A DNA stretch of 5,810 nt, taken from the IMG/VR virus record IMGVR_UViG_2617270975_000015; one strand, written 5' to 3'. Origin of the DNA: a virus. Taxonomy: Duplodnaviria; Heunggongvirae; Uroviricota; Caudoviricetes. The translations under genes and the position numbers were made by a program. Positions 1 through 5,810 of this stretch are shown one piece after another. The notes beneath the pieces are model-generated. The model searched no databases. It had not been told where the DNA came from and saw only the letters and a program-made list of their open reading frames with translations. Numbering within the stretch: position 1 is the first letter of the stretch; every line of letters starts with the position of its first letter.

Positions 1-189
1 AATCTCCCCCTGCATCTCTGCCCGCAGCCAGTCTTCCGGTGCGATACGAAAATACGCCTCCGGCTCTGCGGAAATATTCACACAAGGGATATACCGCTCC
101 CCCTCCGGCGTGCTTATCACGAAGCCGCACGACTCCGCAGGCGCACACCGCCGGGCATGTGCCAGAATCGCTGATTCAGTCTGTGTCAT
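1..189 (-). CDS. K: Tail tip assembly protein K (lambda gpK-like), N-terminal 63 codons only; the gene continues beyond the window start
   Basis: ATG at 189..187 on the minus strand. Translating 189 down to 1 gives MTQTESAILAHARRCAPAESCGFVISTPEGERYIPCVNISAEPEAYFRIAPEDWLRAEMQGEI with no stop, which closely matches the N-terminus of lambda gpK as I recall it. It sits immediately downstream of L in the lambda gene order H-M-L-K. Not in the supplied ORF track because it is truncated by the window edge. Confidence 0.85.
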   Translation of the reverse strand, partial: MTQTESAILAHARRCAPAESCGFVISTPEGERYIPCVNISAEPEAYFRIAPEDWLRAEMQGEI

Positions 190-199
190 AAACCGGGAT

Positions 200-898
200 T
201 TACTGCGAAAGTTTATTAATGGAAAGGAAACCGCCAAAATTGCCGACATTCCTGCGCAGTTCACACCCACGCATGCACTTGCTGCATCTGTCCTTACGGA
301 TATCCGTGGTGGGGTTGTCGAACTCATCCGCCACCGCAGGACCGTTATACCCGCATTCATCTCCCCGGTAATCCCACATACAGGTATTCGCCAGCATAAT
401 GCGACCGGGAAACAGCGCTCCGTCCGTCTCCGTCGGTGTTGCCAGCACAAACGAGGCTGTCATGGCCGTCAGCTCTGACATCTGCTCCACCACCCAGCGG
501 TCGCTCAGCTCCTGCTCCGGGTCCGCTTCCGGATTGCCCGCCACAAAATTCACCGCATCCAGAAAACGGGCATACACCCGGCGGCGGACCACCGTGGCCC
601 CCACCAGGCTCTGCAGGTCCTCCGCCATTCCGGTGACAAGGCCAAACAGATTGGACACCGTCAGCGACGGTCTGGCACTGCTGCCCTTCCCGTTCATCTC
701 AAAGCCGCTGCCGTCAATCGGGTACGCCTGATATTCACGCCCCTGCCAGGTGACCGGCTCCCCTTTTTCATTCAGTTCATTGCAGAAAAAATAGCGCTCA
801 CCGCCCTGCACCGTCAGGTCGATTTCCCAGAGTACCACACGCGGTGACTGCTCTGACTTAACCGACTCGTTCAGGCTTTCTTCGTGAATATCCTGCAT
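200..898 (-). CDS. L: Minor tail protein L (lambda gpL-like), 232 aa
   Basis: The track ORF 200..925 begins at a TTG. The internal ATG at 898..896 gives MQDIHEESLNE..., which aligns with the lambda gpL N-terminus (MQDI...) and gives the lambda-like length of 232 aa. Stop TAA at 202..200. Similarity to gpL runs the whole length, including VVLWEIDL, GERYFFCNE, GRIMLANTC and the C-terminal CSKC..GC..NVGNFGGFLSINKLSQ. The L ATG overlaps the M stop (TGATG at 900..896). Confidence 0.9.
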   Translation of the reverse strand: MQDIHEESLNESVKSEQSPRVVLWEIDLTVQGGERYFFCNELNEKGEPVTWQGREYQAYPIDGSGFEMNGKGSSARPSLTVSNLFGLVTGMAEDLQSLVGATVVRRRVYARFLDAVNFVAGNPEADPEQELSDRWVVEQMSELTAMTASFVLATPTETDGALFPGRIMLANTCMWDYRGDECGYNGPAVADEFDNPTTDIRKDRCSKCMRGCELRRNVGNFGGFLSINKLSQ

Positions 899-1239
899 CA
901 GTTCACCACCTGCTCTATCGTGCAACTGAAATCACTGTACCGGGCATTATCCGTGACACTCCACTCACGGCACACAACCCTCACCGTCCGGTTATGTTTC
1001 GGCGGTCGCCACAAAAAGGCACGGTAACCACCATGCCACGATAAAAACTCTTCCAGCCAGCGCCGGGTTGACTCATCCGTCACCCGGAACACCGCCTGAA
1101 ACGTCTTCAGTTGAGGATTCAGCCCTGTGGGGCGGCGCTGTTCATAACCGTCACCAAACCGCACCCTCACCACCGACGGCTTCTCACTCACCTGCATCCC
1201 TTCACGCGGGACCAGATGCAGCGTTTTTATCTCAGCCAC
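898..1239 (-). CDS. M: Minor tail protein M (lambda gpM-like), about 113 aa, GTG start
   Basis: Minus-strand ORF ending ...FSCTIEQVVN, with RFGDGY and FLW.PP motifs as in lambda gpM. The start codon at 1239..1237 is GTG, preceded by GGAGG with about 8 nt spacing. The GTG overlaps the H stop (GTGGCTGA), consistent with translational coupling. Stop TGA at 900..898. Confidence 0.85.
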   Translation of the reverse strand: MAEIKTLHLVPREGMQVSEKPSVVRVRFGDGYEQRRPTGLNPQLKTFQAVFRVTDESTRRWLEEFLSWHGGYRAFLWRPPKHNRTVRVVCREWSVTDNARYSDFSCTIEQVVN

Positions 1240-4200
1240 TCAGCATTCCTCCGTCACGTCGCATGGACAGCATCACCGCCTGCACCCGCTGGTCAATCAG
1301 CTGCACAAGACTGCCTGCCGCCTCCGGCCCTATCTGGCCATTAGTCCCGTCATTCTGAATGGCGATATGGTAGACCGGGGAATACACCAGGCCCGCACTG
1401 CCGTACATACTACCCACCGCGCGCACACCCAGCGAGCCATCCGCCGCCCGCGTCAGGGGCATAATGGCTTCAGGTCCGGCCTCCCCCATCAGCCCGGCCC
1501 CTTTTGCAAAGGCAAAGTACGTGGGCGTATCCACAATACTGTTGCTGTACGCACTCAGGTTTGCCGAGGTATACACGCCGCCTTTTGCATTGGCCACCGC
1601 CCCGCCCAGCCAGTCACCAATGCTGCCGAGAAATCCTCCCGCACCGGACATACCGTTTGCCGCCGTCTTAATTCCGTTGACAATCGCGGCATTCATAAGA
1701 ACTTTTGATATTTCCTGCAGCACTGATGAGGCCCAGCTGCGCCATTCCACTTTATTTCCGTTCAGCATCTCCGTGATGTTATTCACCATCCCTGAGATAC
1801 CCTCCGTCGCAAGCTGTGCTGCCTGTGAGGCGTAATCGGACGCATTATCCAACCAGTTACTGAGCCCCTCCTGCAAGCCTTTCTGCCAGTCCGCACGCTG
1901 CGCATCCGATTCGGCATAAAAGGCTGCCTGGTCCTTAAGGCGTTCGCTCAGATACTGCGCGTTCTGTGCCCGTGCCTGTCTGTAAAAATCCTCACTGATA
2001 TCCCCGGTCTGATACTGAGACTGAAGGTCCGCATCCTTCTGGCGGAAGCTGTCGCGGATCTGCTGCAACTCCCGCATGCGTTCCCTGGCTCGTTCTCCCT
2101 GCCCGTATCCCAGCAGTTCGGCTTCATTTGATGCACGCGCAGCCACATTATCATTCTTCAGGGTCTCTTCCCGGGATCGCAACTGTTCCCGGATTTTTTG
2201 CTGGTCAATCAGGGCCGCGTTACGCAGCAGTTCCTGCTTCTGCATCTCCGTCAGGGTTTTCAGTTCGCCCTGCGCAGTCTGGTACTTCAGCTTCGCCAGC
2301 TCTGTATTCTGACCCGCCAGTGCCAGTTGCTCTTTCTGCTGCTTCAGTAGCCGGGAAAAACTGTCTTCCGCTTTTTCCGTCTCTGATTTTCCACCCCGGG
2401 ATTTAGGTTTGTTCGCCTCGTTATTACGCCAGGCTTCCAGAGCATTACTGATATAACGCTGTCTCGCCTCCTGATACGAATCCCCCACAAAACCAAGGTC
2501 ATCCGCCGCATACCCCAGCCGGGCACGCTCTTTTTCTTCCCCTTTCAGTCTGGACAGGGCCAGCTCACGCTCTGTTTTTGTCAGGGCACTCTGCTGTTTA
2601 TCATCCAGAGTGGCCTGTGGCAGCCGTAACGGCACATTCACCAGTCCCTGCCGCTGCTGAAGCAGTTCATTACCCAGCCCCAGCAGACGGTTGAATTCCG
2701 TATGCTGACCGTTCATAACCAGCATGGACTGGTACACCTTATTCTGCTCTGCCGCCTGCTGACGAATTAACGCCACACGACGGTCTTCCAGCCCGGCAAG
2801 CACATCCTGAATGGACTGCGCTTTTTCCTGCATCTGTGCCAGACGGGACTGCTCAACGGCAAGCTGCTCTGTTGCCTGAGCAAGCCCTTCCGTTACGGTC
2901 TTCACCGATGTCAGATGGTTTATCATGAATCCGTCACCGGTCGTCCAGCCCGGGTTCGCCAGAACATACTGATATCCTGCGATTTTTTCCTGCAGGGATT
3001 TCACCCGACTGGCCTGTTCATCAATCAGCCGGTTCTGCTCTGTCAGCGCCGCCCGTGTTCGTCCTTCATTATCTGAGGCTTCAGGCAGAGACATTGACGG
3101 CGTTTTATGCGCGATTTCATCTATCGTCAGTGCATACTGGCGCGCAGACTCCCTGGCCTGCTCCTGATTCTGGTACAGCGTGTACCATGCTGCAGCCCCC
3201 AGCATCACCAGTCCGGGTACGCCACCAACCAGCCCCAGCGCACCGCTCATCAGACGTGAGCCCACCGCCGTTGTACTGTTCAGCGCATTCTGGGCGGCGC
3301 TTCTGGCAGCAATATTTCTGTTCAGGCGTTCCTGTGTGGCCGCCAGACGGGCCTCTGCTGCAATCTGCATCTCCGTCCCGCGGGCTGCCGCCACGGCCTG
3401 CTGAGCACGGTACACGGCTGCCCTTGCCCGCGCCGTGGCAATCTGCGTTCCCCTGAACTGTGCTTCCGCCAGTGCAACTTCATTACGTGCAGCCGTCACA
3501 AGTCCTGCCGTGGCAGACACCGCTCCGGAGGCCATATTGCCAAAGTACCGGGCAACCCCGACGGCAACCAGCGCCCCCGCGGCTGTTGCCACATTATCAA
3601 TATTACCGGCAACACCGTTCAGCACGCCGGAGAGCGTTTTTGTCACCCCGCTGGCCTCATTCGCACCACCCACCCAGGCCATAAAGGCGTTTTCCACCTT
3701 TGTGATCCCGTCAGAGACCGTTTCCGGCATGGCCGCGTATTCATCACGCAATACCTCCAGCTGGCTGATTAACGCAGGAACGACTTTATCCGCCGTCAGT
3801 TGACCATCGTCCGCCATCGCCTTCAGATCTTTACGGGCCACGCCCATGCCTGCAGCCAGTGCACGAATGATCCGGTCACCACTTTCATTGACCGAATTAA
3901 ATTCCTCACCGCGCAACACACCCTGTGCCAGCGCCTGGCTGAACTGGGTGATCACCGAACCCGCCTCAGCCGTACTGGCACCGGAGATTTTCAGCCCCGT
4001 GGAAATGGCCTCCGTCACCTTCAGCACATCATCAGCACTGTAACCATATTCACGCATCGAGGCTGCCGAACGGGCAAACAGGGCCGCATTATCCGAAAAA
4101 GCGGTACCTGTCCGCTGACTGATATCCATCAGCACTTTCTGTGATGACGAAAATTCATCGGATGACTGTGATGCCTGTTTCAGACGGGCATTCACGGAAC

Positions 4201-4393
4201 TCCACTCATCCGCCAGTGAAATCAGGTGTCCGGTGGCAAAGGCACCGGCAAACGCACCGGTCATTCCGACAGCCGAAGCGCGGATTTCCGTCAACTGGCT
4301 GTTCAGTTCTGCCAGGGCACGTCGCTGCTCCCGGGCTGCCGCAGCGGCCTGACGCCCGCCATTCTGCAGGGTCCGGTAATATTCACTGCCCAT
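1232..4393 (-). CDS. H: Tail tape measure protein (lambda gpH-like), 1053 aa
   Basis: Single long minus-strand ORF directly upstream of M. Long Ala/Gln/Glu/Arg-rich predicted coiled-coil centre, a hydrophobic segment (GALGLVGGVPGLVMLGAAAW), a Gly-rich C-terminal region, and a C-terminus (NDGTNGQIGP...RRDGGMLSG) resembling the lambda gpH C-terminus. Start ATG at 4393..4391 has a weak Shine-Dalgarno, but an upstream out-of-frame stop overlaps it in a lambda-like T-stop/H-start arrangement (ATGGGCAGTGA). Confidence 0.88.
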   Translation of the reverse strand: MGSEYYRTLQNGGRQAAAAAREQRRALAELNSQLTEIRASAVGMTGAFAGAFATGHLISLADEWSSVNARLKQASQSSDEFSSSQKVLMDISQRTGTAFSDNAALFARSAASMREYGYSADDVLKVTEAISTGLKISGASTAEAGSVITQFSQALAQGVLRGEEFNSVNESGDRIIRALAAGMGVARKDLKAMADDGQLTADKVVPALISQLEVLRDEYAAMPETVSDGITKVENAFMAWVGGANEASGVTKTLSGVLNGVAGNIDNVATAAGALVAVGVARYFGNMASGAVSATAGLVTAARNEVALAEAQFRGTQIATARARAAVYRAQQAVAAARGTEMQIAAEARLAATQERLNRNIAARSAAQNALNSTTAVGSRLMSGALGLVGGVPGLVMLGAAAWYTLYQNQEQARESARQYALTIDEIAHKTPSMSLPEASDNEGRTRAALTEQNRLIDEQASRVKSLQEKIAGYQYVLANPGWTTGDGFMINHLTSVKTVTEGLAQATEQLAVEQSRLAQMQEKAQSIQDVLAGLEDRRVALIRQQAAEQNKVYQSMLVMNGQHTEFNRLLGLGNELLQQRQGLVNVPLRLPQATLDDKQQSALTKTERELALSRLKGEEKERARLGYAADDLGFVGDSYQEARQRYISNALEAWRNNEANKPKSRGGKSETEKAEDSFSRLLKQQKEQLALAGQNTELAKLKYQTAQGELKTLTEMQKQELLRNAALIDQQKIREQLRSREETLKNDNVAARASNEAELLGYGQGERARERMRELQQIRDSFRQKDADLQSQYQTGDISEDFYRQARAQNAQYLSERLKDQAAFYAESDAQRADWQKGLQEGLSNWLDNASDYASQAAQLATEGISGMVNNITEMLNGNKVEWRSWASSVLQEISKVLMNAAIVNGIKTAANGMSGAGGFLGSIGDWLGGAVANAKGGVYTSANLSAYSNSIVDTPTYFAFAKGAGLMGEAGPEAIMPLTRAADGSLGVRAVGSMYGSAGLVYSPVYHIAIQNDGTNGQIGPEAAGSLVQLIDQRVQAVMLSMRRDGGMLSG

Positions 4394-4435
4394 ACGGGAC
4401 GCTCGCTGGATCTCCGACTGGAATGACTGTGAATT
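4383..4435 (-). pseudogene. Possible 3' remnant of the tail assembly chaperone gene T (frameshift-extension part of G-T), truncated by the IS insertion
   Basis: In the minus-strand frame offset from H, an open frame runs from the IS junction down to a TGA at 4385..4383, giving ...FTVIPVGDPASVPYGQ*. This stop overlaps the H start codon in the same frame relationship as the lambda T stop / H start (ATGGCTGA in lambda). Too short to recognise by sequence; the call rests on position and the overlap geometry only. Confidence 0.3.
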
Positions 4436-4488
4436 GTAACCGGCTCATTTAAACCGTCTGGTCTGTTTCCTCCGGCTCTACAAAAATA

Positions 4489-5166
4489 ATGTCCATCATT
4501 TTTAATGGACACTATCGTATGAAACACCGGACCTGGATCACTGAAGCTTTACGTCTTCACTTTGAAGAACATTTACCCCGGGTTGTGGCCGGGCGTCGCC
4601 TGGGTGTACCAAAATCAACAGTTTGTAGTATGTTCGTGCGCTTTCGGAGAGCTGGCCTTTCGTGGCCTTTGCCCGCAGGCATGTCGGAGCAGGAACTTGA
4701 TGCCTGCCTTTACGGACAATTTTCCACGGTACCAGTCGTACGTCCTGAAAGCACCGTTATATCCGAAGCCCCCGTGGTAAAAAAACGTCCCCGGCGGCCC
4801 AACTTCCCTTATGAGTTTAAAATCGCCTTAGTGGAGCAGTCACTGCAGCCCGGAGCCTGTGTGGCGCAGATCGCCCGGGAAAACGGAATCAACGATAACC
4901 TGCTCTTCAACTGGCGCCATCAATACCGGAAAGGTGGCCTGCTGCCTTCCGGAAAAAATATGCCGGCACTGCTTCCCGTGACGTTAACGCCGGAGCCGGA
5001 TAATAAAATCCCGGCCCCCGCACAGGAACCAGAGCAGATAAATACACCGTCCGACAGTCTGTGTTGTGAGCTGGTTCTGCCGGCCGGAACTCTCAGGCTT
5101 AAAGGTAAACTGACGCCGGCGTTATTACAGACACTTATCCGCGAAATAAAAGGGAGCAGCCACTGA
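4489..5166 (+). CDS. tnpA: IS66-family accessory protein TnpA (orfA) with an N-terminal helix-turn-helix-like extension; alternative start at ATG 4519 (MKHRTW...)
   Basis: The C-terminal half (...KKRPRRPNFPYEFKIALVEQSLQPGACVAQIARENGINDNLLFNWRHQYRKGG...) has the conserved IS66 OrfA pattern. The N-terminal ~65 aa (RRLGVPKSTVCSMFVRFRRAGLSWPLP...) looks like a DNA-binding HTH. No strong Shine-Dalgarno precedes either candidate ATG, so the exact start is uncertain. Confidence 0.7.
   Translation: MSIIFNGHYRMKHRTWITEALRLHFEEHLPRVVAGRRLGVPKSTVCSMFVRFRRAGLSWPLPAGMSEQELDACLYGQFSTVPVVRPESTVISEAPVVKKRPRRPNFPYEFKIALVEQSLQPGACVAQIARENGINDNLLFNWRHQYRKGGLLPSGKNMPALLPVTLTPEPDNKIPAPAQEPEQINTPSDSLCCELVLPAGTLRLKGKLTPALLQTLIREIKGSSH
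4490..4511. repeat. Perfect 7-bp inverted repeat TGTCCAT-(8 nt)-ATGGACA spanning the first candidate tnpA start codon
   Basis: Read directly: 4490..4496 TGTCCAT and 4505..4511 ATGGACA are reverse complements, separated by cattttta. It lies across ATG 4489 and 8 nt upstream of ATG 4519. Presence is certain; function (operator or RNA hairpin) is unknown. Confidence 0.5.
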
Positions 5167-5513
5167 TGATATCTCTCCCTGCAGGTTCGCGTATCTGGCT
5201 GGTTGCAGGTATCACCGATATGCGAAATGGCTTTAACGGCCTGGCATCAAAAGTTCAGAACGTCCTGAAGGATGACCCGTTCTCCGGACACCTGTTCATC
5301 TTCCGCGGACGCCGGGGTGACCAGATAAAAGTGTTGTGGGCTGACAGTGACGGACTGTGCCTCTTCACCAAACGCCTGGAGCGGGGCCGCTTCGTCTGGC
5401 CAGTCACCCGTGACGGCAAGGTGCACCTTACTCCGGCTCAGTTATCCATGCTTCTTGAAGGTATCAACTGGAAGCACCCGAAACGAACGGAACGCGCTGG
5501 AATCCGCATATAA
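5166..5513 (+). CDS. tnpB: IS66-family accessory protein TnpB (orfB), 115 aa
   Basis: ATG at 5166..5168 overlapping the tnpA stop; stop TAA at 5511..5513. The sequence is characteristic of IS66 OrfB. This is unrelated to the IS200/IS605 TnpB RNA-guided nuclease. Confidence 0.9.
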   Translation: MISLPAGSRIWLVAGITDMRNGFNGLASKVQNVLKDDPFSGHLFIFRGRRGDQIKVLWADSDGLCLFTKRLERGRFVWPVTRDGKVHLTPAQLSMLLEGINWKHPKRTERAGIRI

Positions 5514-5532
5514 CCCGTTGTAAAGTGAGGAT

Positions 5533-5810
5533 ATGGACACCTCACTTGCTCATGAGAACGCCCGCCTGCGGGCACTGTTGCAGACGCAACAGGACACCAT
5601 CCGCCAGATGGCTGAATACAACCGCCTGCTCTCACAGCGGGTGGCGGCTTATGCTTCCGAAATCAACCGGCTGAAGGCGCTGGTTGCGAAACTGCAACGT
5701 ATGCAGTTCGGTAAAAGCTCAGAAAAACTTCGTGCAAAAACCGAACGGCAGATACAGGAAGCACAGGAGCGAATCAGCGCACTTCAGGAAGAAATGGCGG
5801 AAACGCTGGG
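5533..5810 (+). CDS. tnpC: IS66-family transposase TnpC, N-terminal 92 codons (truncated by the window end)
   Basis: ATG at 5533 preceded by GAGG (5527..5530). N-terminal heptad/leucine-rich region (LRALLQTQQDTIRQMAEYNRLLSQRVAAYASEINRLKALVAKLQRMQFGKSSEKL) typical of IS66 TnpC. The frame is open to the end of the window. Confidence 0.9.
   Translation, partial: MDTSLAHENARLRALLQTQQDTIRQMAEYNRLLSQRVAAYASEINRLKALVAKLQRMQFGKSSEKLRAKTERQIQEAQERISALQEEMAETL

Follow-up and report, generated by a model that had tools for sequence, protein, structure and literature searches.

Where has an insertion sequence entered the tail gene cluster of this lambdoid prophage, and which tail function has been hit by it? 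The window, meaning the whole stretch of DNA analyzed, is a complete draft contig of 5810 bp (JNQZ01000093.1; assembly GCA_000704425.1, a draft E. coli genome), and its closest relatives are all E. coli prophages and IS copies. At 4435/4436, minus-strand tail DNA switches to a plus-strand IS66-family element, 42 bp away from an ATG at 4393. An earlier note on this DNA recognized the element and its distance from this ATG, took the ATG for the start of the tape measure gene H, and placed the insertion in the 3' end of gene T, at the T-H junction. The boundary was confirmed at 4435/4436 by 13 other copies of the element and by intact phage alleles; the assignment to T was not. We consider it likely that a 2699-bp ISCro1-type IS66 element transposed into the 5' end of H in a lambdoid prophage of this draft E. 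coli genome. The insertion point is located after nt 39 of H, between codons 13 and 14, with the element oriented opposite to the tail genes, i.e., antisense in H. The features of the window on which this reading is built are the following:

1..189, minus strand: tail gene K, 5' part (63 codons), JAB/C40 peptidase type (Pfam Prok-JAB); runs off the contig end
200..898, minus strand: minor tail protein L, intact, 232 aa (Pfam Phage_tail_L, 312 bits; TIGR01600, 372 bits)
898..1239, minus strand: minor tail protein M, intact, 113 aa (Pfam Phage_min_tail; geometry as in the intact allele L001)
1232..4435, minus strand: tape measure gene H', 5'-truncated, codons 14-1080 of 1080 (BLASTP and Pfam); open, no frameshifts
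4391..4393, minus strand: internal Met28 codon of H, invariant in the alignment of E. coli alleles, HK97 and AsXd-1
4428..4435, no strand assigned: TGTGAATT, expected left copy of the 8-bp target duplication; single occurrence in the empty site of intact alleles
4436..5810, plus strand: IS66 element, first 1375 bp of 2699, with 0 mismatches to the copies L003, L010 and L011; cut by the contig end
4436..4461, plus strand: left terminal inverted repeat GTAACCGGCTCATTTAAACCGTCTGG, which after reverse complementation of the right end of complete copies matches it imperfectly
4445..4447, minus strand: TGA within the IS and in frame with H, three codons ahead of the junction, read from the sequence; closes the frame from the IS side
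4489..5166, plus strand: tnpA, 225 aa (NCBIfam IS66_access_TnpA, 295.8 bits, cutoff 150; Pfam HTH_Tnp_1)
5166..5513, plus strand: tnpB, 115 aa (Pfam TnpB_IS66, 136 bits; NCBIfam IS66_TnpB, 128.9 bits, cutoff 50)
5533..5810, plus strand: tnpC (DDE transposase), 5' part, 92 codons (Pfam LZ_Tnp_IS66); cut by the contig end

The junction between tail DNA and the IS66 element

The visible part of the element shows the IS66 gene order tnpA-tnpB-tnpC on one strand, and its 92 tnpC codons are identical to the N-terminus of the 523-aa TnpC of the complete copy L003. The left end (GTAACCGG…, beginning with GTAA as expected for IS66) lies at 4436; the right end (…GTCGCTTAC) was read in identical complete copies elsewhere, and the two ends pair imperfectly over ~26 bp. 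Five complete copies measure 2699 bp each (GTAACCGG...GTCGCTTAC), start with GTAACCGGCTC, finish with GAGTCGCTTAC and are bordered by perfect 8-bp target duplications. Thirteen other copies, representing 12 different flanks, all start with GTAACCGGCT, and this constant left end after unrelated flanks indicates that the IS in the window starts at 4436. Eight of the 13 copies (L012-L019) were sampled with an IS-only query, the first five (L003, L008-L011) with a query that included the flank.

The name ISCro1 is used here on the basis of the PGAP label carried by the transposase of identical copies, 'IS66-like element ISCro1 family transposase'. ISCro1 is a member of the IS66 family that was first named in Citrobacter rodentium and is widespread in E. 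coli chromosomes and plasmids. Matches to the element were found in 1746 of the 5426 complete E. coli genomes, at up to 18 places per genome. The octamer directly preceding the element, TGTGAATT on the plus strand of the window and AATTCACA on the gene strand, had been proposed earlier as the left copy of an 8-bp target duplication (4428-4435); its position proved to be correct and the five complete copies do carry 8-bp duplications. A right copy at this locus would lie beyond the contig.

A GAATGAC-like sequence 9–16 nt to the left of the IS, seen in the window (4407-4435) and in the five best-ranked copies, was considered as a target motif and discarded. It is missing in the eight copies sampled with the IS-only query, and since the first five copies had been ranked on a query containing the window flank, we regard the motif as the product of ascertainment bias.

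On the phage side, uninterrupted alleles match the window through 4435 and diverge beyond. The segment 3900-4435 finds a 100% match in two complete genomes and matches of 80–99% in ~1250 complete E. coli records; in all matches listed, it falls entirely under the annotation 'phage tail tape measure protein'. Intact alleles for comparison were L001 (NZ_CP148579; 100% identical over 3900-4435) and L002 (NZ_CP050998). The left junction was absent from the 5426 complete E. coli genomes, GTDB representative genomes and JGI metagenome contigs.

The tape measure gene and its start

That M, L and K follow H in a lambdoid prophage, as had been stated earlier, was borne out by the Pfam and NCBIfam matches and by the gene order of intact alleles. 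L equals its counterpart in L001 in length and spacing, the K fragment is collinear with the 'C40 family peptidase' gene that follows L in intact alleles, and the GTG start of M overlaps the H stop by 8 nt. H' displays the Pfam domains TMP_3, Phage_HK97_TLTM and Tape_meas_lam_C as well as the NCBIfam matches TIGR01541 and TIGR02675. A tape measure gene is thus identified by its domains and by its neighbors, with M-L-K downstream and, in the intact alleles, G and T upstream. In BLASTP comparison with residues 14-1080 of the intact L001 protein, H' gave 1044 identities over 1067 positions in a gap-free alignment. H', M and L are all open and share 97–98% identity with intact alleles.

As a side aspect, the first 655 nt of the retained H are identical to L001, followed by 116 mismatches over ~3.8 kb; this divergence (1232-3780) reflects the mosaicism that is usual among lambdoid tail genes.

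Decisive for the localization of the insertion was the start of the intact gene. In L001 and L002 the tape measure gene comprises 3243 bp and its ATG is found 39 bp past the equivalent of window position 4435, preceded in L001 by a GGAG 9 nt upstream of Met1. The HK97 gp16 record annotates the same Met1 as the intact E. coli alleles, and tblastn matches begin at residue 1 in 165 phage records. Residues 1-27 (MATLRELIIKISANSQSFQSEI(Q/S)RASR) are identical in the E. coli alleles, HK97 and Aeromonas phage AsXd-1, bar one Q/S exchange, and this conservation of the first 27 residues extends to AsXd-1 despite only 73% identity across its first 150 residues. The ATG at 4393, proposed as the start of H, is instead Met28 of a 1080-aa protein; in the window sequence, no purine-rich Shine-Dalgarno element is seen upstream of it. 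The H frame stays open from 4393 up to the IS, and positions 4394-4435, which the earlier note had tentatively assigned to T, represent H codons 14-27, in frame with and identical to the intact gene. That ATG 4393 appears in the open-reading-frame list as the first start after a stop is consistent with the TGA at 4445-4447 within the IS. What the window does not contain are codons 1-13 and the GGAG ribosome-binding site.

The interval between T and H points in the same direction. In intact alleles the T stop is located 51 bp upstream of the H ATG, which puts the insertion point ~90 bp downstream of the T end and 39 bp inside H, so that the insertion itself leaves G/T untruncated, contrary to what had been suspected. 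Between T and the H start, intact alleles harbor a hairpin followed by a T-run (AACCGCtgagGCGGTTTTTTT; L001 5924-5945), and the HK97 record annotates a putative terminator at the equivalent T-H position (HK97 8398-8422); a consensus terminator scan of the intact allele left this hairpin unflagged. The short minus-strand frame that ends at a TGA (4383-4385) does exist and spans 21 codons. Its ATG resides inside the IS inverted repeat and it is out of frame with H, so what had been read as a mimic of the lambda T-stop/H-start overlap consists of out-of-frame H codons. Positions 4383-4435 correspond to H codons 14-31, and neither this stretch nor the 21-aa frame gave an alignment with gpT at E<=100.

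Probable insertion into H, its predicted consequences and alternative readings

Simple insertion is the most likely event: the IS terminus is exact, the octamer occurs just once in the empty site, the flanking genes show no decay and the IS copy is identical to others. The window stops inside the IS, so the right side of this particular copy would lie beyond the contig. Upon simple transposition, TGTGAATT would be duplicated at the far IS end and the right junction is predicted to read …GTCGCTTAC/TGTGAATT/TGCCGAAATTTTG…, that is, GTCGCTTAC and then TGTGAATT TGCCGAAATTTTGATAATCAGTTCACGTAACGTCGCCAT…, running on into T, G and V; the sequence after the right-end TGTGAATT (TGCCGAAATTTTGATAATCAG…) would be the first 39 bp of H, followed by T and G. 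The identity of the IS part to complete copies, together with the undamaged state of H', M and L, points to a recent event.

It is rather unlikely, yet worth considering, that an IS-mediated deletion or inversion took place, such that H codons 1-13, T, G, V and the head genes are no longer found beyond the IS and H-M-L-K is a stranded remnant. The contig ends inside the IS with the other side outside the window, and many E. coli genomes contain several ISCro1 copies, at up to 18 places, which would offer substrates for recombination. Moreover, the predicted right junction was found in none of the complete E. coli genomes, GTDB representative genomes and JGI metagenome contigs, an absence that is only weakly informative because the other contigs of the draft assembly are not part of these collections. 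Against a rearrangement speaks that H', M and L are open and 97–98% identical to intact alleles, with no decay of the kind to be expected in an old remnant. Simple transposition is also the commoner event.

If simple insertion into H is correct, translation of the promoter-proximal stub should yield no more than MATLRELIIKISANSQ before reaching a TAA created by the joining to the IS right end, while the 1067-codon remainder would have lost its Shine-Dalgarno sequence and start codon, its first in-frame ATG being Met28. With no ribosome-binding site on this remainder, the tape measure protein is expected to be absent or scarce, and to lack the strictly conserved N-terminus. M translation may suffer as well, as the M start lies inside the H end, within the 8-nt overlap. 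In lambda and HK97, the tail initiator complex cannot form without the tape measure protein (gpH), which also determines the length of the tail. As the earlier note had proposed, the prophage is probably tail-defective, with the defect attributable, on the basis of its sequence and of lambda biology, to H and not to a loss of gpG/GT. Tails of its own would then be possible only if another lambdoid prophage in the same host provided H. The contig breaks inside K, as is typical of a repeat, which suggests the presence of other lambdoid prophages that could complement the defect.

Repeat-type sequence is found at both contig ends, with tail gene K at position 1 and the tnpC of a multi-copy IS at 5810, which suggests additional ISCro1 copies in the strain as well as additional lambdoid prophages whose distal tail genes are identical.

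The sequence would still be compatible with weak initiation at the internal Met28 or with transcription out of the IS. A scan for sigma-70 promoter and terminator consensus sequences over 4200-4700 revealed no promoter-like or terminator-like site and hence lent no support to an outward promoter. Quite improbable in our view is a functional variant of this scenario, in which a shortened tape measure protein starting at Met28, possibly IS-driven, still assembles, or in which the IS was selected as a tail-disarming, helper-dependent form of domestication that leaves the remainder of the prophage inducible; the intact downstream frames are the only feature in the sequence that favors such readings.

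Slighter still is the chance that phage and IS sequences were wrongly joined in the draft. The contig is a short draft piece with a repeat at either end, for which such an artefact might be suspected. In a separate Logan assembly of SRR1186741, the junction is identical at every base, which argues against a quirk of one assembler, and the junction falls exactly on the canonical first base of the IS, unlike what a random chimera would produce. An insertion in the 3' end of T with truncation of gpG/GT, for which just the lambda analogy and the open 21-codon frame can be put forward, is practically untenable in view of the in-frame identity of 4394-4435 with H codons 14-27, the internal position of Met28, the location of the T end upstream of the true H start, from which it is separated by the hairpin and T-run, and the lack of similarity to T of a 21-aa frame whose ATG is part of the IS.

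Relation to known systems and annotation

The visible part of the element resembles ISCro1 in every respect: 1375 of 1375 nt are identical to complete 2699-bp copies, the genes are arranged as tnpA-tnpB-tnpC, the ends carry GTAA and the complete copies are flanked by 8-bp duplications. No difference was noticed in this visible sequence, which covers the left 51% of the element. What sets this copy apart is its insertion site, which was found in 0 of the 5426 complete E. coli genomes. For the tail genes, HK97 provides the reference protein of the tape measure type. Its gp16 (H) shares 81% identity over the first 150 residues, the same Met1 and the Pfam domain Phage_HK97_TLTM, and the HK97 neighborhood 12-13/14-15-16-17-18-19 follows the order major tail, G/GT, (T or moron), H, M, L, K. 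In contrast to HK97 gp16, the window copy is devoid of codons 1-13 and the ribosome-binding site, owing to the IS. Alleles from Stx-converting and other lambdoid prophages of E. coli come closest (97–100%), rather than HK97 itself.

It is commonplace for prophage morphogenesis genes to be inactivated by an IS. We are dealing here with a known IS and a well-known type of gene, and it is only for this particular site that the collections searched appear to hold no record. A related case is the O157 Sakai prophage Sp4, where an IS disrupts the morphogenesis-related gene nu1, and defective Sakai prophages can still be mobilized with help from others (PMC2669165). What the two cases share is the loss of a single essential virion gene to an IS, in a lambdoid prophage whose host as a rule harbors several of a similar kind; they differ in the IS, the target (nu1 versus H) and the strain. 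The importance of the case described here hardly extends beyond a correction of annotation, and it illustrates an ordinary route of prophage knock-out.

For annotation, an IS-disrupted pseudogene minus its N-terminus is the appropriate entry for H, in place of a protein of 1053 aa with Met28 as its start, and H, not G/T, should be given as the reason why the prophage is probably tail-defective. The analogy to the lambda gene order, combined with the first ATG beside an IS, can mislead, and such cases are resolved in a single step by aligning the empty site.

Two minor points concern the gene calls within the element. The NCBIfam model for tnpA matches from residue 13 onwards, with the N-terminal ~100 residues giving only weak helix-turn-helix matches otherwise; the match from residue 13 suggests that the true start of tnpA may be the ATG at 4519 (MKHRTW…) and not the one at 4489. 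In the stored gene calls of the source contig, the place of tnpB is taken by an antisense ORF of 59 aa (5247-5426, minus strand).
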